From positions 3,302,411-3,334,410 of the forward strand of contig NC_020409.1 in assembly GCF_000341895.1 (NCBI RefSeq): a stretch of 32,000 bases of DNA, given 5' to 3'. The stretch comes from Pseudodesulfovibrio piezophilus C1TLV30 (GTDB lineage: Bacteria; Desulfobacterota; Desulfovibrionia; Desulfovibrionales; Desulfovibrionaceae). This document shows, one piece after another, positions 12,502-31,980 of the stretch (position 1 is its first letter; every line of letters starts with the position of its first letter). The notes under the pieces are model-generated. The model searched no databases. It had not been told where the DNA came from and saw nothing but the letters and a program-made list of their open reading frames with translations. The translations under genes and the position numbers were made by a program.

Positions 12502-13266
12502 TCAGGAAAATTGTTCGTTGAAAATTCGTTCTTCCAATGAATGGCCAGGATCGAACAGGACCGTGGCATATTGGCTGGTGTCTTCCGTCACGATGACGTG
12601 ATTGACGTCCCGGACTTCAAAGGAATCTGCGGAAGCGCCGACAGGGCGTTTCTGATGGTTGATGATGTCGAATTCCACTGTGGCTGTGTGGGGGAGCAAT
12701 GCTCCGTCCCATCGTCTAGGGCGGAATGGGCTGACTGGGGTCAGAGCGAGCACGTTGGAGCCAAGAGGGATGATTGGTCCTCGAGCGGAAAGATTGTACG
12801 CAGTTGATCCGGCCGGTGTGGCAAGCATGATTCCGTCGCATATGAGCTGGTCAAGTCTGATTTGGCCATTGATACTCACCCGGATATGGGCAGATTGTTG
12901 GGAATATCGAAGCAACGCGACTTCGTTGAAAGCGAGGGCTGTCAACCTGTGTCCAGAAGAGGACGTCGCAGTCATTTTCAAGGGGTAGAGAGTATGTCCC
13001 TGTGCCGAGTTGAGTCTTTCTTCCAGAGCATTCTGGGAGAATTCGTTCAGCAGGAACCCGACGGTGCCCCTGTTCATGCCGTAAATGGGCACTCCGAAGT
13101 GCAGGTACTCATGCATGGTTGCCAAGAGAAACCCATCTCCCCCGAGAGCAACGATCACGTCAGCTTCTTCCACCGGGACAAAGGAATATCGTTTGGCAAG
13201 GCTTTCAAGTCCTTTTCGTGCCTTGGTAGAGCGGGAAGCTATGCATGCAATTTTGTCAAATGCCAT
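12502..13266 (-). CDS. nadK: NAD+ kinase
   Basis: VALGGDGFLLATMH, GMNRGTVGFLLNEF and ATPAGSTAYNLSA motifs. Confidence 0.9.
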   Translation of the reverse strand: MAFDKIACIASRSTKARKGLESLAKRYSFVPVEEADVIVALGGDGFLLATMHEYLHFGVPIYGMNRGTVGFLLNEFSQNALEERLNSAQGHTLYPLKMTATSSSGHRLTALAFNEVALLRYSQQSAHIRVSINGQIRLDQLICDGIMLATPAGSTAYNLSARGPIIPLGSNVLALTPVSPFRPRRWDGALLPHTATVEFDIINHQKRPVGASADSFEVRDVNHVIVTEDTSQYATVLFDPGHSLEERIFNEQFS

Positions 13267-13510: not shown

Positions 13511-14845
13511 TCAGGGATCAAGACGCATATCGAGGGGGATATAGGGTCTGGATTCGTGCCCTGTATATATCTGGCGTGGGCGGTGAATTTTAGTCGTGCC
13601 ATCGGTATTTGTCTCGTTCCAATGAGCAATCCAGCCAGGCATCCGTCCGATGGCGAACATGACCGGGAACATATTCACAGGGATACCCAGTGCGCGAAGG
13701 ATGATACCGGAGTAGAAGTCGACATTGGGGTAGAGTTTACGCGAAGTAAAGTATTCGTCATTGAGAGCCACCTCGGCCAGTTCCAATGCAATGTCGAGAA
13801 GTGGATCATCATACCCGATGGAGTCGAGCATGTCGTGTGCGGCCTGGCGCAATATCTTTGCACGAGGATCAAAGCTCTTGTATATACGATGCCCGAATCC
13901 CATGAGACGGCATTCCTTGCGTTTAACCCGCTCAATATATTGGCCTATAGTCGCTTCCCCGTCACGGATATCTTCGAGCATCTTGACGACACCGGCGTTG
14001 GCCCCTCCGTGCAACCGTCCCCACAGAGCGCAGATACCTGCGGATACCGAGGCAAAAAGATTGGCCTCAGTGGATTGAACCATGCGCACGGTGGAGCATG
14101 AGCAGTTCTGTTCGTGATCAGCATGGAGCAGGAAGAAAAGTGTCAATGCCCGAACCTGTGCGTCCGTTGGTTCGAAGTTCCTGTTTGGTACCGAATGCAT
14201 CATGTGCAAGAAGTTTCGGCAGTAAGACAGCTTTGGGTCCGGGTACATGAACGGGAGCCCTTGCGCTTTCCTATAGGACCACGCGGCAATGGTCCTGACT
14301 TTGGATATGATTTTGGCGGCAGCACGCAGGAAATCATTGGTACTCGTAATTTCGAGCAGGTCGGGATGATAGCAGCCGAGAGAGTTGATGACAGCTGACA
14401 AAATAGCCATGGGATGTCCATTGGATGGAAATCCTTCGAAATGATGGCGCAATCCTTCGTGCAGCAATTCTTGTTCACTGAGTAAATCGCGAAATTCCTG
14501 GCGCTGACTGCGCGTCGGCAGTGCGCCGAAGATCAAGAGATAGGCGGTCTCGATGAATGTCCCCTGGGCGGCCAGTTCCTCGATGGGATATCCTCGGTAT
14601 CGGAGAATACCGTTCTCTCCATCAACATAGGTGATGGCACTGGTACATGCGCCGGTGTTCCCGAATCCGGGATCATACGTCACGTACCCTGTTTCCTTGC
14701 GCAGACATGATATATCGACCGCGTGTTCGTTTTCGGTCCCGACGATTACCGGTAGTTCGTACGTGGTACCGTCCAGAATCAGATATGCGGTCTTGCCTTT
14801 GCCTTCCTTGCTATCCTTCAGCATGGTCAAACCCCTTGATGTCAT
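13511..14845 (-). CDS. gltA: Citrate synthase
   Basis: GFGHRIYKSFDPRA, HADHEQNCS and LDGTTYELPVIVGTENE motifs. An alternative start at 14824 (MLKDSK...) is preceded by AAGGGG. Confidence 0.9.
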   Translation of the reverse strand: MTSRGLTMLKDSKEGKGKTAYLILDGTTYELPVIVGTENEHAVDISCLRKETGYVTYDPGFGNTGACTSAITYVDGENGILRYRGYPIEELAAQGTFIETAYLLIFGALPTRSQRQEFRDLLSEQELLHEGLRHHFEGFPSNGHPMAILSAVINSLGCYHPDLLEITSTNDFLRAAAKIISKVRTIAAWSYRKAQGLPFMYPDPKLSYCRNFLHMMHSVPNRNFEPTDAQVRALTLFFLLHADHEQNCSCSTVRMVQSTEANLFASVSAGICALWGRLHGGANAGVVKMLEDIRDGEATIGQYIERVKRKECRLMGFGHRIYKSFDPRAKILRQAAHDMLDSIGYDDPLLDIALELAEVALNDEYFTSRKLYPNVDFYSGIILRALGIPVNMFPVMFAIGRMPGWIAHWNETNTDGTTKIHRPRQIYTGHESRPYIPLDMRLDP

Positions 14846-18807: not shown

Positions 18808-19408
18808 TTCATTTTTCCTCTTATATAACAGATTCTTGAGGGTTCAGATCCATTGCTGGAAATTGTTTTCCGGTTTTCCTGGTCGAGCATTGAATTTTGG
18901 GTATCATCACTCACAAAAAGGGACAGTAATGAAAACACAGGCGGTTCTTATCACCTGGGATGGTCGGCGATGAATCATACGAGCCGTTTACACAGGTGGA
19001 TCTGACCTATGTGAGATCGCATACGAGCAGTCAAAAAGCGTTTGGAATGGTCGAGGGAGAGCCGAAGCCCTATGTCCGAAGCCTCTTCGCCATGTGTGGT
19101 GATGTGGTTCCGATAAATCCGGACATTTGGGATTGCTCTGATCGTGGTGGGCGAATTGTCCTGGTGTGAACGTCTGTCGATATTCATGGGAGGCTGGTTT
19201 CAAGAGTACCTCTTCTTGTAATCAATTGAGGGTAAGCGAAAATCTTGTCAAAATGTTTTGCAGTCTGGCCTTGCTCCTGCCACAAAGGTGGATGGTGTGT
19301 GGGGATAAAATTGACAAGTTGGAAATGCTCCGGCTAAGAGCGGGGCGCGGCTGGAGTATCAGCCCATCCATTACAATAGAAAGAATGAGCCTGTCGGCAT
19401 ACCCGAGA

Positions 19409-22054
19409 ATGAAGTATCCTGAAATTATGAAGACCCTGTGCTGCCTCATCCTGACCATGAGCATGGTCTGCTTTGCGTGTGTTGCGTCTGCGGCCACAGG
19501 ACGCAAGCAGGTACTGTATATCAATTCCTATCAAAACGGGTATGCTTGGTCGGACAACATCCTGGCAGGGATTCGTGAGAGGCTGAGGGAGAGTGACTAC
19601 ACCATTGACCTTCAGGTGGAGTACATGGATGCCAAGAAACATCCGGCACGGTCCAACCGAGCCTTGTTGAAACGGCTTTTTGCCAATAAGTTCGCCGAAT
19701 CCAGATTTGATGCAATCATCTGTTCGGACAACGATGCCTTTCAGTTCATGCTCTCCTATCATGATGTTCTGTTTCCTGGCGTGCCGGTGGTTTTTTGCGG
19801 GGTGAATGACTGGCAGCCGGAAGTGTTGGAACGGCAGCAGGGCGTGACCGGTATTGTTGAACGATTGGGTATTCGTGAAACTCTGGAAACAGCATTGCGT
19901 CTTAACCCGTTGAAGCGGAAAGTCATCGTTGTTGGCGATCCCTCGCTGACATCGCGGGCAATTGCAGCCCAGATAAAGGCTGTTGTGCCGGATTTTATCG
20001 ACCGGCTGGAGTTTTCTTTCTGGGAGAATATCCCTCTCAATGAACTGCTTTCGCGCAGCCGAAATCTTCCCGACGACACGCTTCTCTTTTTCATCCCTGT
20101 CTATGTGGAATCCGAGGGCAAGTACCTTTCGGCAGGAGAGGTTGTTGAAGCCCTGTATGAGAATGCCAATGTCCCTATCTATGGCGCATGGAAGTTCCTT
20201 CTGGGGCACGGCATCGTCGGTGGGCATCTGCTGGACGGTGTGGGGCATGGCAAGGCTGCTGCAAATATGGTTCTGAAAATTCTGGACGGTCTGTCTCCTG
20301 CGGATATTCCCACCGCTTACGGTGCACCATCGGGGTCAGTGTTTGATTGGAAGGTCCTGGAGAAATTCGGCATGGACATAGCGGTACTTCCATTTGATGC
20401 GCAGTTCATTAATCGGCCGGAATTGACGTACCAGCTTGAAAAAAGGGTTGTCTGGACTGTGGGGGTTGCTCTGTGTGTCTTGACACTGTTTACGCTTTTG
20501 TTGGGAGCGAGTCGTAATCGAGCGCTCCGGGCCGAACGTGAATTGGCTTTGTCCAGGGCAATGTTGCGCTCAATCATTGATACCATCCCGCAACTGCTCT
20601 ACTGGAAGGATTCCGATAATCGATTCAAGGGCGTCAATAGGCGTTTTGCGGATTTTTTTGGGCTTTCCCGGTTGGAGGAAGCTGAAGGAAAACGGAATAA
20701 CGATGTCATTCATGAAAAACAGTTTTCAAGAAAGAGTGATGATCTGGATCGAATTGTCATGGATCGGGGACTGCCTGTCCTGCGGGAGATTCTGGAATAT
20801 GATGCTCCCGATCGTCCCGGAATGGTCTTTGAAATGAGCAAGATTCCCTTGCATGATGACAAGGGAAATATTTCAGGTGTCTTATCCACTGCGGAGGACA
20901 TCACGGCTCGTGTGGTTCTGGAACAGCAGCTTATTCAGTCTCAAAAGATGGAGGCTGTCGGGACTTTTGTTGGAGGTATTGCACATGATTTTAATAATTT
21001 GCTGACAACAATTATCAATTCGACTGAACTTGCATTGATGGAAATAGAAGCTGTTGATGCGGCAGAGGATGTGCTGCGCGCCAAGTTGGCCGCACAGCAG
21101 GGGAGTCAGCTTGTGAGCCAGCTTCTGACATTCTCAAGGCCATCGAACAGGGATGCCATGCGTATGGATGCGGCGGAAACTGTCACGAAAGCACTGAATC
21201 TTGTCGCTCCATTGCTGCCGGACTCTATTGTTTTGAAAAGAGATATTCCTCCCGACATATTGGAAGGTGTTGCTGATCCTTCTCAATTGCAGCAGGTCGT
21301 GATGAACCTCTGCACCAATGCTATCCACGCGTTGAAGGAGTCCGGTGGAGTCCTGATTGTTTCTGTGTCAGTGGATGAGGGCCGTCAGCGAAACGCGCAA
21401 TCCGGACTTGCGGGCAGACGGCTCCTTCGGCTCAAGGTCCGGGACAATGGACCAGGTATTTCTCCTAATGTCCGGGACAGAATTTTCGATCCGTTTTTTA
21501 CTACCAAGAAAAAGCATGAGGGAACCGGTTTAGGATTGGCTATTGTTCAGGGGATTGTGCACGGACATGGTGGGCACATTCGGCTTGTCAGTCATCCAGG
21601 GCTGACGCTTTTTGATATTGCAATTCCTTTCGAGAAGGGGGAATCAGCTCCGGTTATTTCGAATACGACGAACTTTGGAGGCGAAGAGAGAATTCTCTTT
21701 GTGGAAGATGATCCGGAGCAATTGGTATTGATTCCGCGTGCCCTGTCACTCCTCGGGTATAAGGTGACAGCGGTCCAGGGCGGGCGTGCCGCATTGGATG
21801 TTCTCATGGGAGGGACCCGATTCGACATGATTGTCACGGATTTTGATATGCCGGGGTTCGACGGTGTGGAGTTGGCCAGAACCGTGCGGCAACTTTTTCC
21901 TGGTATTCCCGTGATTCTTGTTTCAGGCGGGCAGGATGCAGTGGCTGCGGCTGATGGAGATCCAGGGATCATCGATGTTTTGATGAAACCGTACACCGGA
22001 AGTGCTTTGGCAGAGCGCATGAGACGTCTCTTTGATGTCGACAGCAATGCTTGA
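19409..22054 (+). CDS. Hybrid sensor histidine kinase (periplasmic ABC-substrate-binding-like domain, TM, PAS, HisKA, HATPase_c, REC)
   Basis: Signal/[39 protein letters not shown] is a periplasmic-binding-like motif. [41 protein letters not shown]-box [11 protein letters not shown]. Also [16 protein letters not shown] and [22 protein letters not shown]...[11 protein letters not shown]...MKP. Start is 19409 or 19427; the track start at 19166 is GTG and probably read-through. Confidence 0.85.
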
Positions 22055-22079
22055 GTTGATTGTGAAGGAACAGAGAGAC

Positions 22080-23492
22080 ATGGCAACAGTACTGATACTT
22101 GATGATGATCTGCGTTTGAACCAAACCATGGTCCGCATCATGGGCCGGATGGGACTTGAAGCCGATTCCGCTGCGACCATTGCGGAGGCTCGGGAGCTTA
22201 TGCAAGGCAGGGCGTATAAACTCGTCTTTTTGGATGTCCGGCTCCCTGATGGTAATGGGTTGGATATTTTACCGGAAATTCTGGACACGCCATCCCGGCC
22301 AGAGGTTGTCATTCTGACAGGAAAGGGAGACCCGGATGGTGCGGAACTGGCTATCCACGCCGGAGCCTGGGACTACCTTCTTAAACCGTCTTCCGTGAAG
22401 CAAACCATGCTTTGTGCCGAGAGGGCGCTCAAATATCACAAGCAGAAACTTGTTGTCGAACCTGCGTCCAAAATCGACCTTGGCAGCCTGGTGGGTGTCA
22501 GTCCCAAGATGGAAGCCTGCTATGAGCAGATAGCACTTGCTGCGCGGTCGGATTCCAATGTTTTGATTACTGGAGAAACCGGGACTGGCAAGGAACTCTT
22601 CGCACAAACGATTCACAAGAACTGTTCCCGAAGAGAATTCGAGTTTGTTCCGGTGGACTGTGCGTCTCTCAACAAAGAATTGATTGAGAGTGTGCTTTTC
22701 GGTCATAAGCGCGGCGCATTCACCGGAGCGGAGCGGGACCGAGTCGGACTGGTCAAGGTTGCCGATCGGGGCACCTTGTTTCTGGATGAAGTCGGGGACA
22801 TGAATCTTGATATTCAGAAGACCTTTCTCAGAGTCCTTCAGGAGCGAGCATTTCGCCCTGTCGGGGATACAAAGGAAGTTTCGAGTAATTTCCGCTTGAT
22901 GGCTGCCACAAATCGAGATCTTGATGCTGATATTGATCAGGAAATGTTTCGCCAGGATCTTCTGTACCGTCTCAAGACCATTCATATCAAGTTGCCTCCT
23001 TTGCGAGAGCGTGACGGAGATATCAAGTTGCTGGCCTTGTTTCGGGTCAACCAGCTTGCTCGGCAGTATGATCGGGAAATGACCCTGGCCCCGGAATCTT
23101 TCGATGTCCTGAGCGCCTATGCCTGGCCCGGCAATGTGCGTGAATTATTTGCAGTCATTGAAACCGCATTTCTTCATGCAGATGGTGCGGCGCAGATTAT
23201 TCCCCGCCATTTACCCTCTCAATTGCGTGTTGCCGCCATGAGGGCACAGGTTGCTCGTGTTGACGGCTCTTCTGTCGTTTCAGAACGAGAGAGCGGTCCG
23301 GATTCTCTTGGTATGGAAGCTGTCAAGCAGGGAGTCTCGTTGAAAGGGTTCAAGGGAGACATGGAAAAACATTATCTTGAAGAACTCAGGACTGTTACAG
23401 GAGGTGATATTAAGCGTATGATCGAAATCTCCGGATGTTCACAATCACATCTCTATTCCTTGCTGAAAAAAGCTGGCCTTTCTCTCAAATAA
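22080..23492 (+). CDS. Sigma-54-dependent response regulator (REC + AAA+ enhancer-binding domain + Fis-type HTH), NtrC family
   Basis: REC VLILDDD...FLDVRLPDGNG...LKP. Walker A GETGTGKE, GAFTGA loop and Walker B LFLDEVGDM. C-terminal HTH ISGCSQSHLYSLLKKAGL. ATG at 22080. Confidence 0.9.
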   Translation: MATVLILDDDLRLNQTMVRIMGRMGLEADSAATIAEARELMQGRAYKLVFLDVRLPDGNGLDILPEILDTPSRPEVVILTGKGDPDGAELAIHAGAWDYLLKPSSVKQTMLCAERALKYHKQKLVVEPASKIDLGSLVGVSPKMEACYEQIALAARSDSNVLITGETGTGKELFAQTIHKNCSRREFEFVPVDCASLNKELIESVLFGHKRGAFTGAERDRVGLVKVADRGTLFLDEVGDMNLDIQKTFLRVLQERAFRPVGDTKEVSSNFRLMAATNRDLDADIDQEMFRQDLLYRLKTIHIKLPPLRERDGDIKLLALFRVNQLARQYDREMTLAPESFDVLSAYAWPGNVRELFAVIETAFLHADGAAQIIPRHLPSQLRVAAMRAQVARVDGSSVVSERESGPDSLGMEAVKQGVSLKGFKGDMEKHYLEELRTVTGGDIKRMIEISGCSQSHLYSLLKKAGLSLK

Positions 23493-24008: not shown

Positions 24009-24632
24009 TCAGGATAAACGGCGTTTGATGCCGATTAGCCCAAGGAGTCCTGTGCCGAGGAGGAGAGCCGCACCCGGGATCGGAGTGGGCGAAACAGAAA
24101 CATTGCTGAAAATACTGGTGCTGATACCATCACCGCCAGCCGAGCTGACATGGTCATCATCATTGATGAAGACAAGGTAATCAAATGCATCGCCTATATT
24201 GAGAAAGTCCGTCAGGTTAATGGTATACGTCGTGAAACCGCTGCCTTCCGTATACAAGGTGGAATAGATGAATTCAGGCCAGTTATTGCCCTGTGTGCCG
24301 CCTATCTTGACAGCGTTTTTGGCATCGAGTGCATAATCGAATGACCTATCGGTATCAAAGCCAATGGCTGCTATTTCAGGGATGGAATCGCTTTTGTAGG
24401 TAAATGTCAGGACGCTGTCAGCTTTGACTGTATAAGTGGAATCAAAAGCATAGGCAGTCCAAATATTATTGGACAAGGTCAGTGTTGATCCACTGGCAGA
24501 TGCTGTGCCTGTGGTTGGTTGGCCGGAATATGACAGCGGATTGCTGAAGTCGATAAGGGCAGCGGTCGCAAAGCCGGGTGAGCCTAAGTGGCAGAGTACG
24601 GTACAGAAAAAAAGTATTAGAAAACGTTTCAT
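24009..24632 (-). CDS. Secreted protein with a PEP-CTERM-like (VPLPA-type) C-terminal sorting signal
   Basis: Signal peptide MKRFLILFFCTVLCHLGSPGFA. C-terminus TPIPGAALLLGTGLLGLIGIKRRLS. GGAG RBS. Apart from the two termini, there is no obvious similarity to the 18231..18761 protein. Confidence 0.8.
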   Translation of the reverse strand: MKRFLILFFCTVLCHLGSPGFATAALIDFSNPLSYSGQPTTGTASASGSTLTLSNNIWTAYAFDSTYTVKADSVLTFTYKSDSIPEIAAIGFDTDRSFDYALDAKNAVKIGGTQGNNWPEFIYSTLYTEGSGFTTYTINLTDFLNIGDAFDYLVFINDDDHVSSAGGDGISTSIFSNVSVSPTPIPGAALLLGTGLLGLIGIKRRLS

Positions 24633-24662
24633 GTGTGCTCCAGTGTGTTTTTTCTTCCTTTG

Positions 24663-24678
24663 AGCAAGACCTGGACCA
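24663..24678 (-). promoter_or_regulatory. Sigma-54 (-24/-12) promoter of the 24009..24632 gene
   Basis: The minus strand reads TGGTCCAGGTCTTGCT, with GG-N10-GC spacing and a -12 TTGCT. Its 3' end is 31 nt from the ATG, the same geometry as at 18792-18807. Confidence 0.6.
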
Positions 24679-25049
24679 TGTTGTTTATCTATCCGTTTTT
24701 AAATGGTAATTTGAGAAAAGAAGTATGCGATCAGCGCTTTTTATTCATCTTTCCGAAATAGTCGGACAGACCTTTTTTGTCAGATTAGTCGTTTCTTGCC
24801 GCAAGAGTGGGGTGAGCCTTTTCGATCTTTTGGGTGTTGTTCAAAGGAAAGAGACGATATTCCGAGGTTGAATATCTTTTTTCTGTGAAAAAAACAGGGT
24901 GGTTGGGCTGTTTGACTTTTTTCGAGTCTGTCCTGACTGAAGTTACATCCGGGAGAAGCAGACTTGTGAGGAAGGAAAAAACTTTTCCCACGAATGAAGC
25001 GAATGCCAATTTTGAGCGAAGCGTGAATCGAGGCAGTGTCTTTTTGCGT

Positions 25050-25083
25050 ATGTGCCCCTGGTCCGTGAGGACCAGGGGCACAT
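25050..25083. other. 15-bp perfect hairpin with a GTGA (GNRA-type) tetraloop in a non-coding region
   Basis: ATGTGCCCCTGGTCC-gtga-GGACCAGGGGCACAT. No flanking T-run, so it is not a classic terminator. Confidence 0.6.
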
Positions 25084-25212
25084 CTCCGGGGGGTCAGTAC
25101 CCTTTCGGGATACAGGAGTTTGAGGGGGGGTGAAACCCTCAAGGGACGTATCTGTTCTGGTCCGTAGCACGTCAGACCAAAACAAGAGTTGTTCAGTGAC
25201 GAATAGTCACAT

Positions 25213-25241
25213 GCACACCGGAAAATCCGGTGGCTTTTTTT
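25213..25241 (+). terminator. Rho-independent terminator oriented for the + strand
   Basis: CACCGG-aaaat-CCGGTG, then GC and seven T residues. The T-run is on the + strand side only. rnfB, on the minus strand, ends 88 nt to the right. Confidence 0.6.
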
Positions 25242-25328
25242 ATATCAGTTCAACGTGTCAACATGGCGAACATGTGTTTTCGAGTCGATGACAGAGCTTC
25301 GTCTAAAACCGGAACCGTTGTGTTGACA

Positions 25329-27443
25329 TTACTTCTTGCTGATTTCTTCGAATGGTTGCACATCGGTATCCTGAGCGTATTCGGCTCCTGCCTCGGAGTC
25401 GTAGCAGGTCAGGCCGCAGCGGAGGCAACGGCTTCCTTCCTTTCTTGCTTCTTCGTAGGCAATGCCGCCCTGAACTTCTTCCTTGAAGGTGCACTTGCGT
25501 TCTTCCACGCTGATCTCGGGGACCTGAATGCGGGGGATGGAATACGTCACATGCATATTCTTGAGGATGGATTCGGGAATAACTCGAAGTTGCGGATTCT
25601 TTGGCTCAGGAATGGTTCCCTCGGTTATGGAGTGGTGGATGGCACGAGCCGCACGGCGACCATCGGCAACAGCCTGGATCAGGATGTTGCGTCCTGTATG
25701 GGCTTCGCCACCAGTGAACACATTGGGGATGCTGGTTTGCAGCGTCGTGGCATCAGCCTTGATTCCACCGGTTTTTTTATCCATCTCAAAGAGAGGGGAA
25801 CCTTCTGCATTCATCAATGAACCGGCACCGGACATGCGATCCGTCGCGACGATGATCATGTCGGCTTCAAGGTTTGCCTCGGTTCCATCGACGACTTTGG
25901 GGGTACCGGTGGCTTTTTTGGGATCGGCATACGCCAATTCGCAATAATCTATACCTGTAACCTTTCCATTTTCAGCCGTGATGGCTGTTGGAGTCGTGAG
26001 GTATTTGAGGTCTGCACCGAGTTCGGCAGCACGTTTGACTTCATTCTTGTTCGCAGCCATTTTCCGGTCATTGCAGGCAATGAGGGAAGAGACGTCAGCT
26101 CCGAGGCGAATGGCGCTCCGCACGACATCCATGGCCGTGTTGCTATCTCCGACCACAACGACTTTCTTTCCTTTGAGGTCGGTATATGTTTCACCAACCT
26201 GTTCCAGGAAAGAGATCGAATCGACCACACCGTCAGCGGTATCGTTTTCGATTCCCAGAGCCGGGACTTTCCAGGCTCCTGTCGCCATGAAAACGGCTTC
26301 GAATCCTTCCTCTTCCAAATCGGGAAGGGTGAAATCCGTGCCGAATGTCATGCCGGTACGAATGTCTACACCAAGGTCGAGAATAGTCTGGATTTCCCAG
26401 TCAACCACTTTGTGCGGGAGTCTGTATTCGGGAATGACGCCGCGCATCATGCCACCGACCAGGTCACGCTTTTCGAATATGACCGGTTCGTGCCCGATTC
26501 GTCGCAGGAAGTATGCGCAAGACAGACCAGCAGCACCACCACCTATGATCGCCACTCGGTGACCTGAAGGGGGATTGCAGTTGAGTTGGACTCGTGCGCC
26601 GGAGTTCATTTCCCAGTCAGCGACAAAACGGTGCAGGGTATGAATAGCCACGCCGTTGTCGGCTATCTTGCGGCGGCAAATGTTTTCACAAGGGGCAGGG
26701 CAGAGGCGGCCGACAGCCAGAGGCAGGGGATTGCGTTCCTTCATGGTCAGAAGTGCGCCGCGCATGTCGCCCTGTTTCATTTGTTGAATATAGGTACGAA
26801 CATCCACCTGGGCCGGGCATTTCTGCATGCAGGGGGCCAGGCAGTCATCAATCTTGTTCAGGTGTAGCAGATCCATGGTCATGCCTGAAATGCGGATGGC
26901 TCCGGTCGGGCAGACTTCCGCGCATTTTCCACAGGATCGGCAGGCGTGCCAGTCCACGACAGGGAGTCCGTTGTCATCAAGTCGGATAGCATCAAAACTG
27001 CACACCTTGACGCAGGTTCCCATGCCGATGCAGCCGAGACCACATGATTTCTCGCCACCATAGAGTAGAGCTTCAGCGCGGCAGTCCTCGACTCCTTCGT
27101 AGTCAAAGAGCAGATTGGCGCGGGATCCGCCAGTACAAATGTTTGCCGCGACTTTGGGTTCCTTGAAAGTAACTTCGGTTCCCATGATTGCCGCAATAGC
27201 GGTTGCGATCTCCGGGCCTCCGGCCACGCATATTTCAGGGGCTGCATCGCCTTTGACGATAGCTCCGGCAGCGGCAGAGCAGCCGGGATAGCCGCAGCCT
27301 CCGCAGTTGGCACCGGGAAAGCATCCCTCAACCGCTGCGATGCGGGGATCTTCTTCAACATGAAGGACTCGGGACGCGGCAGCCAGAACTGCGGCAGCGC
27401 CAAGACCTAGTAAAAACAGGACCAGTATGGAAGTGGTAGCCAT
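25329..27443 (-). CDS. rnfB: RnfB fused to a GltD-like (glutamate synthase small-subunit type) FAD/NAD(P)H oxidoreductase, 704 aa
   Basis: N-terminal TM, then the RnfB Fe-S domain GANCGGCGYPGC...C, then two ferredoxin motifs (CGLGCIGMGTCVKVC and CRSCGKCAEVCP). Next comes the GltD N-terminal Fe-S region CLAPCMQKCP...NPLPLAVGRLCPAPCENICRR, the dinucleotide folds VAIIGGGAAGLSCAYFL and KKVVVVGDSNTAMD, and a C-terminal CLRCGLTC. Confidence 0.85.
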   Translation of the reverse strand: MATTSILVLFLLGLGAAAVLAAASRVLHVEEDPRIAAVEGCFPGANCGGCGYPGCSAAAGAIVKGDAAPEICVAGGPEIATAIAAIMGTEVTFKEPKVAANICTGGSRANLLFDYEGVEDCRAEALLYGGEKSCGLGCIGMGTCVKVCSFDAIRLDDNGLPVVDWHACRSCGKCAEVCPTGAIRISGMTMDLLHLNKIDDCLAPCMQKCPAQVDVRTYIQQMKQGDMRGALLTMKERNPLPLAVGRLCPAPCENICRRKIADNGVAIHTLHRFVADWEMNSGARVQLNCNPPSGHRVAIIGGGAAGLSCAYFLRRIGHEPVIFEKRDLVGGMMRGVIPEYRLPHKVVDWEIQTILDLGVDIRTGMTFGTDFTLPDLEEEGFEAVFMATGAWKVPALGIENDTADGVVDSISFLEQVGETYTDLKGKKVVVVGDSNTAMDVVRSAIRLGADVSSLIACNDRKMAANKNEVKRAAELGADLKYLTTPTAITAENGKVTGIDYCELAYADPKKATGTPKVVDGTEANLEADMIIVATDRMSGAGSLMNAEGSPLFEMDKKTGGIKADATTLQTSIPNVFTGGEAHTGRNILIQAVADGRRAARAIHHSITEGTIPEPKNPQLRVIPESILKNMHVTYSIPRIQVPEISVEERKCTFKEEVQGGIAYEEARKEGSRCLRCGLTCYDSEAGAEYAQDTDVQPFEEISKK

Positions 27444-27470: not shown

Positions 27471-28046
27471 TTAGGCGGCCATGCCCTTGAAGGCGAAAAA
27501 GACCAATGACATGACACCAGCCATGATCAGGGCCACCGGAACGCCACGGAATACCGCCGGAACCGGCGAGATATCCAAACGTTCTCTTATGGACGAAATG
27601 ATGACCAGGGCAATGAGAAAACCGATGCCGGAAGCCAGGCTGAAAACCATGGACTTGAGGAAGGAGAACCCGTTGCGTTGGACCATGATCGCCACACCCA
27701 TCACCGCACAGTTGGTCGTGATCAACGGCAAGAACAAGCCCAGTGATTTGTAGAGGGGAGGTATCAGCTTGCGCAGAAACATCTCTACGAATTGCACCAG
27801 GGATGCGATGACCAGAATAAAGACAATGGTCTGGAGGTATTCGATGCCATTGGGGATCAGGACGAACTGATGCAGGGGCCAGGTAATGGCTGTGGCCATG
27901 AGCATAACGAAGATGACTGAGCCACCCATGCCAATCGCCACATCAGTGGATTTGGAGGTGCCCATGAAAGGACACGTTCCGAGATATTGTACCAGGACGA
28001 TATTATTGATGAATATCGCCGAGATAAAGAGCAGGAAGTATTCCAC
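27471..28046 (-). CDS. rnfA: Rnf complex subunit A
   Basis: (GTG)EYFLLFISAIFINNIVLVQYLGTCPFMG... with 6 TM helices. GTG start preceded by AAGGGAGAG. Confidence 0.9.
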   Translation of the reverse strand: MEYFLLFISAIFINNIVLVQYLGTCPFMGTSKSTDVAIGMGGSVIFVMLMATAITWPLHQFVLIPNGIEYLQTIVFILVIASLVQFVEMFLRKLIPPLYKSLGLFLPLITTNCAVMGVAIMVQRNGFSFLKSMVFSLASGIGFLIALVIISSIRERLDISPVPAVFRGVPVALIMAGVMSLVFFAFKGMAA

Positions 28047-28058
28047 GTTCTCTCTCCC

Positions 28059-28736
28059 TTATTTGTCGTTGCAAAGGTTGCAGGCACCGCACGAAGCGCA
28101 GGAGGAGTTTTGTGGTATGGTCACCTTTTCTCCTTTCTTGCGGCTCTGGTAGCGGTTGATGGCGTTCATGCCAGCCAGGATCATGCCGAGACAGATGAAG
28201 GCTCCGGGGGCCATGACCATGAACTGGGCTGGCTGGAAGGACTCCCACATGACGGGTATGCCGAATATGGTGCCGTTCCCGAAGATCTCACGAATGGCAC
28301 CCAGAAATGTCAGGGATGCCGCAAAGCCGATTCCCATGCCCAGTGCATCGGCAATGGACGGGATGACTCCGTTTCTGGAAGCGAACGCTTCGGCTCTGCC
28401 CAAAATCAGGCAGTTGACAACAATCAGCGGAACGAAGATTCCGAGTTTTTGGTAAAGTGGGTAAGTGTATGCCTGCATGAGCAGCTCAACCGCGACCACG
28501 AGTGAAGCGGTGATGACGATAAAGCAGGCAATGCGGACCTTGGCAGGAATAATCTTGCGCATGGCCGAAATGATGATGTTGGAAAGGGTGAGCACAAAAA
28601 TGACTGCCGCCCCCATGCCAAGACCGTTTTCTGCGGTGGAAGTCACTGCCAGTGTGGGACACAGGCCGAGCAGCACCCGAAACGGTGGCAGCTCAGCCCA
28701 GAGACCCTTGAGGAATTCCTTACTGATAGAACTCAT
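28059..28736 (-). CDS. rnfE: Rnf complex subunit E with a Cys-rich C-terminal tail
   Basis: MSSISKEFLKGLWAELPPFRVLLGLCPTLAVTS... ATG at 28736 preceded by TAAGGAGGAATACA. The tail is ...NSSCASCGACNLCNDK. Confidence 0.9.
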   Translation of the reverse strand: MSSISKEFLKGLWAELPPFRVLLGLCPTLAVTSTAENGLGMGAAVIFVLTLSNIIISAMRKIIPAKVRIACFIVITASLVVAVELLMQAYTYPLYQKLGIFVPLIVVNCLILGRAEAFASRNGVIPSIADALGMGIGFAASLTFLGAIREIFGNGTIFGIPVMWESFQPAQFMVMAPGAFICLGMILAGMNAINRYQSRKKGEKVTIPQNSSCASCGACNLCNDK

Positions 28737-28747
28737 TGTATTCCTCC

Positions 28748-29317
28748 TTAGGATGCCTGCCACATGGTGGCGATTTGCGGCTTGATGCCCTGATAGATTT
28801 CAATGGCCTTGCGAACAGCGTCCACGGTTCCGATGGATGAAAAGGTCGCGCCTGAGACACCGTCTATATCGCCGCCACGCTTTGCCAGATCCATGGATTC
28901 AATGCCGTGGTTTCTAAACTGTCGGGTGAATGACGGTTTGGTAACCTTGGTGCCGAGGCCTGGGGTTTCGGTTTGTGTGGTGATGCCGACGCCCATCAGC
29001 ACATCATTTTCAATATTGAATCCGACGATAACGCCAATGTCGCCAGAGTAACCGGGAGCAAAAGCTTCCAGGGCAATGCCGACGAGTTTGCCGTCTTGTT
29101 TGGCCGGGAAGACCATGACGTCATTAATCAATTTGCGTTCGGCGATAGGATCGTTATCACAGTCGTTCAGTACTGATCTCAGAGCCGGACCCTGCACGTA
29201 TGTCAGGACCTGCTGTTCGATCTGGCTGTGGGTGGCTTGTTTCAGATTCACCAGAATCGCGCCGGACGTGGCACAGATCAATGAAAGCACCACAAGCATA
29301 TGGAGTATTTCACGCAT
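28748..29317 (-). CDS. rnfG: Rnf complex subunit G (FMN_bind domain)
   Basis: N-terminal TM helix. The flavinylation motif DIDGVSGATFSS is present. Confidence 0.9.
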   Translation of the reverse strand: MREILHMLVVLSLICATSGAILVNLKQATHSQIEQQVLTYVQGPALRSVLNDCDNDPIAERKLINDVMVFPAKQDGKLVGIALEAFAPGYSGDIGVIVGFNIENDVLMGVGITTQTETPGLGTKVTKPSFTRQFRNHGIESMDLAKRGGDIDGVSGATFSSIGTVDAVRKAIEIYQGIKPQIATMWQAS

Positions 29318-29320
29318 GAT

Positions 29321-30292
29321 TTATTTGCCTCCGAAGAATTTGGGGCGCACACGCTCAAGGAGCGGGCTCAACAGATTTGCCACCATGATGGCAAATGGCA
29401 CGCCGTCCGGGTATGTCCCGTAGACTCGAATGACCACGACCATTGCTCCTGCGATGAGGCCGAAGAGGATCTGCGGTATCATGCCTACCGGGCTGGAAGC
29501 AGCGTCAGTGGCGAGGAAGAATGCACCGAAGACCGTGCTGCCTGCCAGGATGTGGAAGAGAGGGCTGGCATACATGGTGGGGTCTATGGACCAGAAGAGT
29601 GCTGCCGTTGCAGCCACGCCTATCAGATAGGCGACCGGGATGAATGCGCGAATCCAGCCTCGGGCGATCAGGAAAATGCCGCCGAGAGCCAGAGCCAGGA
29701 CCTGGGATGATCCCAGTCCTCCGAGTTGATGACCGAGAAGAAGGTCTCCCAGATCGAATTGCTGGAGTGAGTCAACGCCGAAGTACATCAGCTGGTCAAC
29801 AGGACTGTTCAACAGAAAGTGGGACAGGTTCAGGTCGATGTCCATTGCATTGGGCCAGGACAGACGGCAGAATGCCCATGCCACCAAGGGGGCGCAAACC
29901 GGGTTGCAGCCGAATCCGCCAAAGACCGTCCGACCAAGGATGATAGTGACTGCTGCTCCGATGGAGACCAGCCACCAGGGGGCTGTTGCGGGTAACAGGA
30001 AAGCAAACAGGACACCGGCATACAGTGCGTTGAAATTGTCGATGTCAAGATCGCGGTTTTGAAGGCGCAGGCAGAGAGCTTCTGTCAGGGTCGCGGCAGC
30101 TCCGGCCAATCCAATGACCGCTGCTGCATGCAGCCCGTATATATATATCGCCATGGCAGCGGCTGGAGCCAGGGCCAGCAGGTGCGCCTGCATCATGCCT
30201 TTGATGGTTCGTCCGCTCCGCCAATGAGGCGGCGGGGAGACCGTCAATCTTGTGGCAATGTCGGACATCGCCTTGATTATGGGAGGAGTCAT
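29321..30292 (-). CDS. rnfD: Rnf complex subunit D
   Basis: VSPPPHWRSGRTIKGMM... with polytopic NqrB/RnfD-like helices. ATG at 30292 preceded by AAGGA. The track start at 30316 is TTG. Confidence 0.85.
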   Translation of the reverse strand: MTPPIIKAMSDIATRLTVSPPPHWRSGRTIKGMMQAHLLALAPAAAMAIYIYGLHAAAVIGLAGAAATLTEALCLRLQNRDLDIDNFNALYAGVLFAFLLPATAPWWLVSIGAAVTIILGRTVFGGFGCNPVCAPLVAWAFCRLSWPNAMDIDLNLSHFLLNSPVDQLMYFGVDSLQQFDLGDLLLGHQLGGLGSSQVLALALGGIFLIARGWIRAFIPVAYLIGVAATAALFWSIDPTMYASPLFHILAGSTVFGAFFLATDAASSPVGMIPQILFGLIAGAMVVVIRVYGTYPDGVPFAIMVANLLSPLLERVRPKFFGGK

Positions 30293-30337
30293 TATCTCTA
30301 ATCCTTGTATTTTCAAAAAGGGTGTTTTCGGTCTGAA

Positions 30338-31483
30338 CTAAGCCTGTTCGCCGTGTCCGCTGGCCTGCAATTGAGCCTTGGCAAACCGGATATACTGCAA
30401 CAGCGGACGCCGGGAGAAGCAGTTGAATGAGCATAAACCGCACTCGAAGCAGCTATTGAGGCCATGCTTCTCGGCTTGTTCGAATCGTTCGTATTCGGCA
30501 TAGCGACTGATGAGATGCGGTTGGACGCGTGCCGGGCATTGCAGGACACATTCCCCGCAATTGATACAGGGAGCATCCTGAACAGCCGGGAATTGGCTTG
30601 CAGGAATGATGAAGAGGCCATAGTCGGTTTTTTTGACCCCTTCATCCAGACTGTAGACGGATTCGCCTTGGAAGGGACCACCCAGAACCACGATGTCAGT
30701 GGAAGCGACCGGCAGATCAAGAGTCTGAAGCAAGTGCTTGATGGGGGTGCCGAGAGGAACGCGGTAATTGCGACCGGCAATGGTCATGATGGTGTCCGTG
30801 ATCGGTTGTCCGGAGACTGCCACGCGGCCGAGGTCATACAGGTCCATGACGCTGATGACTTTGGTATCGGACGGGAATTCTTTACCAGTGACGGCGCGGA
30901 CCACCAGAGCATCCAGCGAAGACGGGTATTTGGCCTTTACTCCCACAGTCTCTGCGCCGGGAATGGCGGACTTGTCTCCCTTGGCAACAGCCAGAACGGT
31001 ACGGCCGGGGGTGATGAGTTTGCGGGCCAGCTCCAAGCCGGCCTTCAGATATTCGCCGCCGTCTTTCAATATTTGCTGGGCGGCTGAAATACCCGGCTCA
31101 GGATTCATACCGTTAATGATCAGTACGTCTGCCCGCCCGGAAAGGGGGGCTACGTGGACTCCCAGTCCCTGAAGTGTGCGCAGCAGTTCCTTGCCGGTTC
31201 CCATGGATTGCACGTCCAGAGGCTCCACGGAGGTTTCGCTGTCACTACATTTAATGGTCATATGATGGTAATTGACCTTCATGACCTTACCACAGGCAGA
31301 GGCGTGGTAGGCTCCACCAAAAGGGGACGGGGCTTCGGCGAGGATGTCGCCCTTGTTAATCAGGGCCCCTTTCTTTGTCCTCAGAACGAGGTTCCGCACC
31401 TGAATATTCAATTCTGCCGGAGCAGGGATTTCCAAAATTTCATTATGAAGTTCGGAATCGAGGGAATAGTGTATTTTAAGCAT
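30338..31483 (-). CDS. rnfC: Rnf complex subunit C (short form, with degenerate flavin/NADH motifs)
   Basis: C-terminal 2x[4Fe-4S] motifs CINCGECVLQCP and CFECGLCSFNC, plus KYPSS. The ATG at 31483 lies 2 nt after the cytochrome gene's stop. The expected GGAGFP motif is GVHVAPL, and AAECEPY is GMNPEPG. Confidence 0.85.
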   Translation of the reverse strand: MLKIHYSLDSELHNEILEIPAPAELNIQVRNLVLRTKKGALINKGDILAEAPSPFGGAYHASACGKVMKVNYHHMTIKCSDSETSVEPLDVQSMGTGKELLRTLQGLGVHVAPLSGRADVLIINGMNPEPGISAAQQILKDGGEYLKAGLELARKLITPGRTVLAVAKGDKSAIPGAETVGVKAKYPSSLDALVVRAVTGKEFPSDTKVISVMDLYDLGRVAVSGQPITDTIMTIAGRNYRVPLGTPIKHLLQTLDLPVASTDIVVLGGPFQGESVYSLDEGVKKTDYGLFIIPASQFPAVQDAPCINCGECVLQCPARVQPHLISRYAEYERFEQAEKHGLNSCFECGLCSFNCFSRRPLLQYIRFAKAQLQASGHGEQA

Positions 31484-31485
31484 GT

Positions 31486-31980
31486 CTACCTCGCGTGGCA
31501 CTGGTAACAGGAATCGTCGCCGTACGGGCCACCGTTTTCTTCGTGACAGCCCATACATTGTGTATGAAATGCTTCGGCTCGAAGAGGGATGTTCTCGATA
31601 TCCGGTCTCTCATCTTCGGCAAGCGGGGCGGTGGGAACATCGTCATGACAGCGCAGACATGCTTCATCACTGGGGAATGCTTTTTGATGATTGACCCGGA
31701 AGTCATCATTGAATTCCGCAGGGTGGCAGGTTCCGCACGCAAGAAAGGTGTCTGAACCGATATCATCGTGATGACAGTCGATACAGTCGAATCCGTAATC
31801 CTCGGCATGGGCCTGGTGTGAAAAAATGACACGTCCGCCTGTGTTGTCCATGACAATTCTCGCCGGGACATCCTGCTTTTCGACGGGGATCATATATCCC
31901 GCAATCGCGATGACGAAGAGTGCCGCAATGATTGCCGCAATGGTTAAATATCTTCTCTGCAACAGTTTTACCTCGTTCAT
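31486..31980 (-). CDS. Membrane-anchored multihaem cytochrome c (five CxxCH motifs), first gene of the rnf operon
   Basis: N-terminal anchor YLTIAAIIAALFVIAIAGYMI. Haem motifs CIDCH, CGTCH, CLRCH, CMGCH and CYQCH. A c3-like VIFSHQAHAEDYGFDCIDCHH segment is present. Confidence 0.85.
   Translation of the reverse strand: MNEVKLLQRRYLTIAAIIAALFVIAIAGYMIPVEKQDVPARIVMDNTGGRVIFSHQAHAEDYGFDCIDCHHDDIGSDTFLACGTCHPAEFNDDFRVNHQKAFPSDEACLRCHDDVPTAPLAEDERPDIENIPLRAEAFHTQCMGCHEENGGPYGDDSCYQCHAR

Follow-up and report, generated by a model that had tools for sequence, protein, structure and literature searches.

In this work, we describe a gene of Pseudodesulfovibrio piezophilus C1TLV30, a sulfate-reducing deep-sea bacterium, in which the Rnf subunit RnfB and a flavoprotein form a single polypeptide. 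The gene lies on the minus strand of a stretch of 32,000 nucleotides of contig NC_020409.1 (positions 3,302,411 to 3,334,410), which we call the window and whose numbering we use throughout. Its product is RnfB of an Rnf ion pump of the Desulfovibrio type, linked to cytochrome c, and carries in addition a module of the NfnL/StnC type, made of two [4Fe-4S] clusters, flavin adenine dinucleotide (FAD), a second dinucleotide-fold domain and a cysteine tail. Such fusions fall into two sister clades, F1 and F2, and the copy in the window is of the F1 type. The reading that we favour, with a probability of about 0.55, is that in this F1 copy the fused flavoprotein no longer uses NADPH in the canonical way and serves another cytoplasmic partner.

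Rnf is a central energy-coupling site of anaerobes, in whose textbook form RnfB deals with ferredoxin and RnfC with NAD+. Among mainly marine sulfate reducers there is a large group in which the complex looks different at either end, with an RnfC that lacks its glycine loop, a cytochrome c gene at the head of the operon and a flavoprotein on RnfB.

Architecture and distribution of the fusion

The fusion gene is a single unbroken open reading frame (ORF) from ATG to stop, and its 704-aa translation is 100% identical to an NCBI protein of P. piezophilus (P0001). A first-pass annotation, made by a model from the letters and their ORFs, had described an RnfB joined to a GltD-like flavoprotein, and Pfam, NCBIfam and alignments to PDB chains bear out a genuine RnfB with a GltD/NfnL-like flavoprotein, encoded within an rnf operon. 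Pfam finds PF04060 (residues 43-73), a 4Fe-4S dicluster (138-184), PF14691 (202-281) and PF07992 (296-585), so that PF04060, PF14691 and PF07992, the combination that had been proposed, do occur in one polypeptide. The NCBIfam RnfB models span residues 1-192, and TIGR01944 passes its cut-off (72.9 bits against 68.7), while the longer RnfB models of the PRK07118 type score under their own cut-offs because the C-terminal half of RnfB is replaced in the fusion; the GltD-like models PRK12771 and PRK12814 span residues ~200-687. The solved RnfB chains 9eri_B and 7zc6_B align with residues 8-190 (E-values of 1e-44 to 1e-46). Beyond the RnfB part, the best PDB alignments are to NfnA of NfnABC (9bov_A, 9n5u_A) and to StnC (8oh5_C), followed by NfnB/NfnL, GltD and DPD. 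The AlphaFold2 (AF2) model of the whole fusion, in which the linker is modelled as structured, is confident, with a predicted local distance difference test (pLDDT) of 85.6 and a predicted TM-score (pTM) of 0.84. Searched with Foldseek, it again returns NfnA and StnC on top (9bov_A, E=1.5e-47), with target-normalised TM-scores of 0.79 for NfnL 5jca_L and 0.77 for 6s6s_E. Residues 1-190 thus make up a normal RnfB, and the boundary that had been placed near 26845 is correct; residues ~200-690 form an NfnL/StnC-type module predicted to bind two [4Fe-4S] clusters and FAD. The features of the gene, all on the minus strand, are the following:

25329..27443, minus strand: rnfB::nfnL-like fusion gene, 704 aa, clade F1 (ORF calling, translation, Pfam, NCBIfam, AF2)
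27366..27440, minus strand: membrane anchor helix, residues 2-26 (hydrophobic residues 4-26; AF2 helix 2-26; aligns to the anchors of 9eri_B and 7zc6_B)
27225..27317, minus strand: RnfB FeS domain PF04060, residues 43-73, one [4Fe-4S], Cys47/50/55/72 (Pfam E=2.5e-10, above the gathering score)
26892..27044, minus strand: RnfB ferredoxin domain, two [4Fe-4S], Cys134/138/144/148 and Cys168/171/174/178 (Pfam Fer4 families; the eight Cys invariant)
26844..26891, minus strand: fusion junction, residues 185-200, ISGMTMDLLHLNKIDD (kept in both fusion clades)
26601..26843, minus strand: Fer4_20 region, residues 201-281, two [4Fe-4S] (PF14691, 68.9 bits)
25689..26558, minus strand: two-dinucleotide-fold flavoprotein core, residues 296-585 (PF07992, E=1.6e-22)
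26526..26543, minus strand: FAD motif GGGAAG, residues 301-306 (sequence; conserved)
26133..26150, minus strand: degenerate second dinucleotide motif G432-D-S-N-T-A437, canonical form GGGNTA (alignments to PDB homologues; clade survey)
26049..26081, minus strand: segment IACNDRKMAAN, residues 455-465, in place of YRRxxxEMPA (alignments; clade survey)
25404..25427, minus strand: C-terminal tail C673-x2-C676-x3-C680, EA..RCLRCGLTCY (invariant columns)

The predicted cofactor ligands are strongly conserved: among 62 homologues, Cys47, 50, 55 and 72 of the PF04060 domain (motif NCGGCGYPGC, residues 46-55) are invariant, as are C201, 205, 209, 248, 252 and 256 of the Fer4_20 region. The latter were assigned to clusters through HMMER alignments to 9bov_A and 8oh5_C and the ligand list of PMC11829005. 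The proximal cluster would be held by C209, C248, C252 and His271, the histidine standing at the Lys170 position of NfnA and StnC, and the ligands predicted for the distal cluster include C201, C205 and C256. The junction itself aligns to the linker ahead of the NfnL-like domain in NfnA (9bov_A, residues 86-99), and the C673/676/680 tail is homologous to the segment that follows this domain in NfnA and StnC. The module also has the C-terminal FAD-type GG(D/E) motif (FTGGE, residues 576-580), and the Arg of IPEYRLP, equivalent to R239, is conserved across the fusions. The Fe-S hallmarks that had been noted are all present (C201x3C205x3C209P, NPLP and GRLC248PAPC252ENIC256). So is the first of the two Rossmann motifs announced, GGGAAG; the second reads GDSNTA and is not a GxGxxG/A motif.

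This architecture is widespread. A database search returned more than 100 full-length homologues (~700 aa, 46-85% identity) from Pseudodesulfovibrio, Maridesulfovibrio, Salidesulfovibrio, Desulfocurvibacter, Paucidesulfovibrio, Desulfobaculum and uncultured Thermodesulfobacteriota. A scripted analysis of 80 genome loci, gathered through alignment of RnfC, identified an rnfB-type gene in 64, of which 37 have a fusion and 27 a short, ferredoxin-only RnfB (283-313 aa); rnf genes stand beside every fusion, which is the last gene of the rnf operon wherever this could be checked. More than 150 full-length fusions, from isolates and metagenomes, share one and the same junction: ...LLHLN..DCLAPC... 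is kept in 37 sequences taken from the loci and in 116 from databases, and this conservation across independent assemblies excludes the hidden frameshift or stop that had been raised as a possible explanation. In a neighbour-joining tree of the RnfB N-domains, all the fusions form one clade, sister to the short RnfBs, the sole apparent exception being a sequence cut by a contig end. Because of this conserved junction and this single clade, we are dealing with one old event and not with an assembly artefact: the fusion arose once in the Desulfovibrionales and then duplicated into F1 and F2. That an assembly or sequencing error joined rnfB to a separate gltD-like gene was considered and rejected as practically negligible, given the conservation of a ~700-aa ORF and of its junction in more than 150 sequences and the structured linker of the AF2 model.

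The fusion is thus common in its own lineage, but it is barely noticed in the literature. Our literature search found it mentioned only in a comparative paper of 2024 (PMC11434368), which noticed the gene and called it 'rnfB lost', the retained RnfB part being unrecognised; that paper did not separate the two clades and did not comment on RnfC. The architecture is common without being already characterised. Public annotations, which range over 'FAD-dependent oxidoreductase', 'RnfB', 'glutamate synthase beta-like' and 'formate dehydrogenase beta', hide the family behind their names.

The nucleotide site in clades F1 and F2

The two clades compare as follows:

Membership: F1, 22 loci and 100 of the 151 full-length sequences; F2, 15 loci and 51 of the 151
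Dinucleotide loop: F2, GGGNTA(I/M)D; F1, G[D/E/G][S/T]N[T/S/A]A
2'-phosphate site: F2, YRR; F1, none, consensus xCIQRKMSANK
Next segment: F2, EMPA; F1, KM(S/A)A
Position of StnC/NfnA Lys170, a ligand of the cluster next to FAD: F2, Lys; F1, His, Gln, Glu, Leu or Met
Cytochrome gene: F2, decahaem; F1, pentahaem in 19 of 22 loci

In the window copy, the second glycine of the GxGxxA loop is a serine, preceded by an aspartate, and YRR, which is found in all the solved homologues (NfnA, StnC, NfnL and GltD), is replaced by A-C-N. Residues 455-465 thus hold neither the arginine pair for the 2'-phosphate nor the equivalent of R333, and they carry the clade-specific K461; the segment is homologous to the NfnL segment that bears Arg333 beside the flavin (PMC12221290). 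Judged by the GltD/NfnL fingerprint of GxGxxA plus YRR, which the F2 proteins have and the window fusion lacks, the flavin-binding half of the module looks canonical and the NAD(P)H half does not, so that canonical NAD(P)H binding by the window copy is doubtful.

The same genome provides the comparison. A second rnf operon of P. piezophilus, on the same chromosome-sized contig (positions 4129-11106 of locus L082), encodes a 268-aa cytochrome of the c3 family, rnfCDGEA and a fusion of 701 aa (P0468), which belongs to F2, is 47% identical to the window fusion and has GGGNTA, YRR, EMPAN and the lysine. Several other genomes likewise have an F1 operon plus one or two F2 operons.

These changes are a property of the whole clade. 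The second glycine is Ser or Thr in ~98 of 100 F1 sequences, with an acidic residue before it in ~75%. The dinucleotide domain (residues 401-545) also evolves faster in F1, where its mean pairwise identity is 0.47; in F2 this is 0.67, in line with the other domains there; the RnfB, Fer4_20 and first FAD-domain segments of F1 reach 0.64-0.69. At the same time, F1 has fixed residues of its own at positions where F2 and all the solved homologues have others: R536 (100% of F1, against Gln), R585 (96%, against Pro), K461 (82%, against Glu) and E580 (against Asp). Since such residues have been newly fixed, the change looks like retooling rather than simple decay. We further searched 1.84 billion representative sequences by phmmer with residues 395-560, the F1 dinucleotide domain, and read the best 18 matches. 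Among them, the degenerate motif is seen only in P0073, a full-length fusion, and in the fragments P0241 and P0244, all of the F1 type. The remaining ones have a canonical GxGxxA loop, mostly GGGNTA, with YRR in all except P0243, and no characterised analogue with a degenerate dinucleotide motif was found among these 18.

The replacement of the NADPH fingerprint by a different, conserved and more basic pocket (GDSNTA, no YRR, K461, R536 and R585) leads us to propose that the canonical use of NADPH was given up in the window copy. The module would then act as a flavin entry or exit, or as a converter between two-electron and one-electron steps, for another cytoplasmic partner. We consider three possibilities: a nucleotide site of a non-canonical kind, a newly acquired anionic substrate or partner protein, and a flavin that is only a relay. 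In F2, by contrast with this rewritten pocket, the flavin is almost certainly an NADPH site, and these operons would encode an NQR-like NADPH:cytochrome c pump.

The first-pass annotation had supposed a second or relocated NAD(P)H site. For the family this is reasonable in view of F2, and 'relocated' fits the lineage better than 'second' since the nucleotide loop of RnfC is lost in all 80 loci (see below); for the window copy, the degenerate fingerprint speaks against it. The shift in specificity between NADPH and NADH that it also suggested is not supported: the fingerprint is degenerate in the window protein and in its whole clade (100 of the 151 sequences), and this specificity would not be readable from it.

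The module could all the same be a working NAD(P)H dehydrogenase that replaces the RnfC site, which would make the complex an ion-translocating NAD(P)H:cytochrome c (or NAD(P)H:ferredoxin) oxidoreductase. We hold this to be somewhat unlikely. Its fold is fully kept, with high AF2 confidence across residues 420-530, and G432, N435, A437, D439 and R446 of the nucleotide loop are still invariant; the basic pair R460/K461 lies two to three positions past the lost YRR, the sister clade has a canonical NADPH site and RnfC is devoid of its NADH loop. However, the near-universal Ser/Thr and the frequent acidic residue ahead of it argue against such a function, as does the absence of both YRR (for NADPH) and an acidic residue ending strand beta-2 (for NADH). 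The dinucleotide domain is, moreover, the least conserved part of the F1 proteins, and the presence of a canonical NADPH paralogue in the same genome argues for a diverged function.

At the other extreme, the F1 flavoprotein module could be vestigial or structural, with ferredoxin or flavodoxin docking on the RnfB ferredoxin domain and the complex working like the Desulfovibrio Rnf with a short RnfB. The relaxed constraint on the dinucleotide domain and the loss of the NADPH fingerprint are in keeping with this, and remnant domains do exist in the closest solved relatives, namely the dead domain of StnC and NfnA that resembles formate dehydrogenase (FDH). The ADP-only domain of trimethylamine dehydrogenase is another precedent. 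Yet conservation of the Fer4_20 and FAD-binding parts equals that of the RnfB part, the cluster cysteines and the FAD motif are all invariant, and residues such as R536 and R585 have been newly fixed clade-wide around the former nucleotide/flavin site, which makes this explanation a clearly unlikely one.

The operon and the proposed electron path

The fusion closes an operon that starts with a pentahaem cytochrome c gene and continues with rnfC, rnfD, rnfG, rnfE and rnfA. The first-pass annotation had overlooked the cytochrome gene and the changes in RnfC and RnfD, and these alter what the complex links together:

31486..31980, minus strand: membrane-anchored pentahaem class III cytochrome c, first gene of the operon (five CxxCH; Pfam PF02085)
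30338..31483, minus strand: rnfC-like gene, likely start MLKIHY at 31483 (RnfC models below cut-off, 167.6 against 245.95)
29321..30316, minus strand: rnfD, without the covalent-FMN Thr motif of E. coli RsxD (TIGR01946 above cut-off; alignment)
28748..29317, minus strand: rnfG, Desulfovibrio type, SGAT flavinylation motif at residues 155-158 (NF045876 RnfG_DVU2794, 281 bits against 205)
28059..28763, minus strand: rnfE, with a C-terminal CxxCxxCxxC tail (NF009070 and TIGR01948 above cut-offs)
27471..28046, minus strand: rnfA (TIGR01943, 249 bits against a cut-off of 229)

The likely start of rnfC at 31483 follows its homologues, which begin at MLKIHY; an rnfC that began at the first ATG available (31558) would overlap with the cytochrome gene. 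In the solved Rnf structures, the NuoF-like region of RnfC holds flavin mononucleotide (FMN) and admits NAD+ (PMC9588780). Relative to E. coli RsxC, which reads AGLGGAGFPTGVKLQ...NAAECEPY, the RnfC of the window has a 14-aa deletion that removes the GGAGFP glycine loop for FMN and NADH, and NGMNPEPG takes the place of NAAECEPY; PF01512 scores below its cut-off. The loop is absent from RnfC in 80 of the 80 related Desulfovibrionales loci, which have NG(L/M)NPEPG instead, whatever the type of RnfB. The RnfC fold is kept, with query-normalised TM-scores of 0.67-0.70 to 8rbq_C, 8ahx_C, 8rbm_C, 9eri_C and 7zc6_C and NqrA coming next.

In the alignment of RnfD with RsxD, SLQQFD stands where E. coli has SQATPL, whose threonine we take to be the covalent-FMN site, and a periplasmic loop is shorter by ~40 aa. 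Most related loci are alike in this, a Desulfomicrobium locus (L056) being an exception that retains TSVTPL. A non-covalent flavin on RnfD is possible. RnfA has Cys25 and Cys113 and RnfE has Cys35 and Cys118, pairs which by their positions are the presumed ligands of the intramembrane [2Fe-2S] cluster. The C-terminus of RnfE (28071-28100, minus strand) reads C222-x2-C225-x2-C228-x2-C231, of which at least CxxCxxC is kept in nearly all related loci, and this tail is a candidate for a further metal or Fe-S site.

Wherever the sequence ahead of rnfC is available, a multihaem cytochrome gene nearly always stands there, and over loci L002-L081 its type tracks that of RnfB: the pentahaem cytochromes of F1 have ~165-200 aa, decahaem cytochromes of ~250-320 aa accompany the F2 fusions and most short RnfBs, and the Mailhella loci have four haems. 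The features of RnfC, RnfD and RnfG described above recur in operons with a short RnfB and in those of F1 and F2; they belong to the Desulfovibrio-type Rnf as such and are not a consequence of the fusion.

On the downstream side, apbE is absent 3' of the window fusion. It directly follows 12 of 22 F1 and 16 of 27 short-RnfB loci and none of the 15 F2 loci, and ApbE is the only recurring family when the downstream genes of the 64 loci are clustered by BLAST, the other apparent families being antisense shadow ORFs. The ~700 nt 3' of the fusion (24633-25328) have no convincing ORF, a promoter and terminator scan there gave a single hairpin (25216-25232) at chance frequency, and an Rfam scan of the whole window gave no match. 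Next comes a gene on the minus strand (24009-24632) for a 207-aa secreted protein without Pfam match, which has the PEP-CTERM-like C-terminal sorting signal PIPGAALLLGTGLLGLIGIKRR. Adjoining the rnf region, on the plus strand (19166-23492), are a hybrid sensor kinase (962 aa; periplasmic ABC-substrate-binding-like domain, PAS) and a sigma-54-dependent response regulator (486 aa); a sigma-54 regulator near the rnf operon is likewise reported in the genome paper of D. gigas. Genes for NAD kinase (12502-13266, minus strand) and citrate synthase (13511-14845, minus strand) lie ~12 kb from the operon, with no link established.

The gene content also bears on an Nfn-like, flavin-based bifurcation at the fused FAD, in which the RnfB wire and another acceptor would receive one electron each. 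NfnL/NfnB of the bifurcating NfnAB are clear homologues (4ylf_B, 5jca_L, E~1e-58), the arginine equivalent to R201/R239 is conserved, and an additional cluster is conceivable in the invariant CxxCxxxC tail. But the best matches of the module are the non-bifurcating NfnA and StnC domains, and no partner gene of the NfnA/NfnS type, with [2Fe-2S] and FAD, is found in or next to the operon, apbE being the only conserved downstream gene. Furthermore, Arg333, which lies next to the flavin and is fully conserved in bifurcating NfnB as part of EMPAR (a criterion from PMC12221290), is an Asn in both F1 and F2. For these reasons, the bifurcating-type input that had been suggested for the complex is very improbable.

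We favour instead a linear path, drawn from homology to the solved structures of Rnf and of NfnABC and Stn. In NfnA and StnC, FAD takes a hydride from NADPH and sends single electrons down a linear [4Fe-4S] chain, and this flavin is explicitly non-bifurcating (PMC10482914; PMC11829005). A single wire without bifurcation would have the flavin as its cytoplasmic end and run from FAD to the proximal and then the distal [4Fe-4S], on to the RnfB dicluster and the N-terminal cluster of RnfB, through the [2Fe-2S] of RnfA/E and to the periplasmic FMN of RnfG. From RnfG, which with its FMN is the proposed donor to the cytochrome in the Rnf of M. acetivorans (PMC4023990), electrons would most likely pass to the pentahaem cytochrome c of the operon, coupled to Na+ or H+ movement. 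Onward transfer to NAD+ at RnfC seems improbable because RnfC has lost its FMN/NADH loop and RnfD its covalent-FMN threonine.

Several points weigh against the reading that F1 serves a partner other than NADPH through this wire. Cofactor binding, the path and the cytochrome acceptor are deduced from homology, and no biochemistry or structure of the fusion turned up in our literature search. A Ser or Thr at the position of the second glycine is no proof that NAD(P)H binding is lost, and a nucleotide site of a non-canonical kind could be built from the retained N435, A437, D439, R442 and R446 and the new basic residues. The eight cluster cysteines of RnfC (two [4Fe-4S]) are retained and invariant, so that some electron traffic to RnfC is likely retained as well. 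Finally, the physiology of D. alaskensis G20, which has a short RnfB, was interpreted as Fd:NAD+ activity (PMC4841214).

More broadly, we put forward as possible, though on the doubtful side, that the Desulfovibrionaceae have a new class of ion-translocating oxidoreductase, in which an NfnL-type flavoprotein was placed on RnfB and the NADH site of RnfC was discarded, so that a cytoplasmic flavin is connected to periplasmic multihaem cytochromes in convergence with Na+-NQR. F2 would be an NADPH:cytochrome c pump and F1 a neofunctionalised form, its basic pocket binding a new substrate or partner other than a pyridine nucleotide. If this is true of F2, it would explain the link of periplasmic H2 and formate oxidation to cytoplasmic NADPH, and it would be a second, independent case of the evolutionary step behind Na+-NQR. 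The F1 form of the window, with its rewritten pocket and pentahaem partner, offers a well-defined example, open to testing, of how paralogues of a respiratory complex diverge.

Comparison with known systems

The window protein shares with canonical RnfB (9ERI chain B of A. woodii, 7ZC6 chain B of C. tetanomorphum) the transmembrane helix, PF04060, the ferredoxin domain with two [4Fe-4S] and the rnfA neighbour. Canonical RnfB, however, ends in further ferredoxin-like domains only, whereas a 500-aa FAD/[4Fe-4S] flavoprotein stands there in the window. A 2025 review of RNF and NQR describes C-terminal domains of RnfB with 2-7 extra [4Fe-4S] clusters and no flavin, and mentions neither Desulfovibrio nor the fusion.

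NfnA of NfnABC (9BOV, 9N5U) and StnC of StnABC (8OH5) resemble the fused module in the C-x3-C-x3-C-P...C-x3-C-x3-C pattern, in the linker before it, in EA..RCLxCG after it and in having the flavin as the entry point at the end of a linear Fe-S wire. They differ in that they are fused to NuoG/FDH-like domains within soluble transhydrogenases of the Bfu type, whereas the window protein is membrane-anchored via RnfB, and in that they keep GGGNTAMD, YRR, EMPA and the ligand K170 where the window has GDSNTA, no YRR and a His at the K170 position. With the bifurcating NfnAB/NfnSL (4YLF chain B, 5JCA chain L), the module shares the fold, the FAD site and the two [4Fe-4S]; NfnB, in contrast, has a Glu as ligand of the proximal cluster, Arg333 and an NfnA/NfnS partner, against a His, no Arg333 and no partner gene in the operon here.

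NqrF of Na+-NQR is a functional analogue only, an analogy already drawn in PMC11434368. There too, the subunit in the position of RnfB brings a flavin that converts hydride to single electrons to a core of the RnfA/E type, and NqrA, the homologue of RnfC, has lost its nucleotide site. But NqrF, which has no homology to the fused module and is an FAD/[2Fe-2S] protein of the FNR type, replaced RnfB, which in the window is kept and extended; the partner of Na+-NQR is a quinone and not a cytochrome c, and the RnfC of the window retains two clusters. The Rnf-MmcA system of M. acetivorans likewise has an operon that opens with a multihaem cytochrome c gene and does not use NAD(P) at RnfC; unlike the present one, it is archaeal, with a plain RnfB, ferredoxin as sole donor, methanophenazine as sink and no flavoprotein fusion. 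The Desulfovibrio Rnf with a short RnfB (DhcA-RnfCDGEAB-ApbE, as in D. alaskensis G20) has the same operon skeleton, an RnfC without the loop, an RnfG of NF045876 and an upstream cytochrome, and it differs by its ferredoxin-only RnfB of 283-313 aa, its decahaem cytochrome and an apbE that is usually the next gene.

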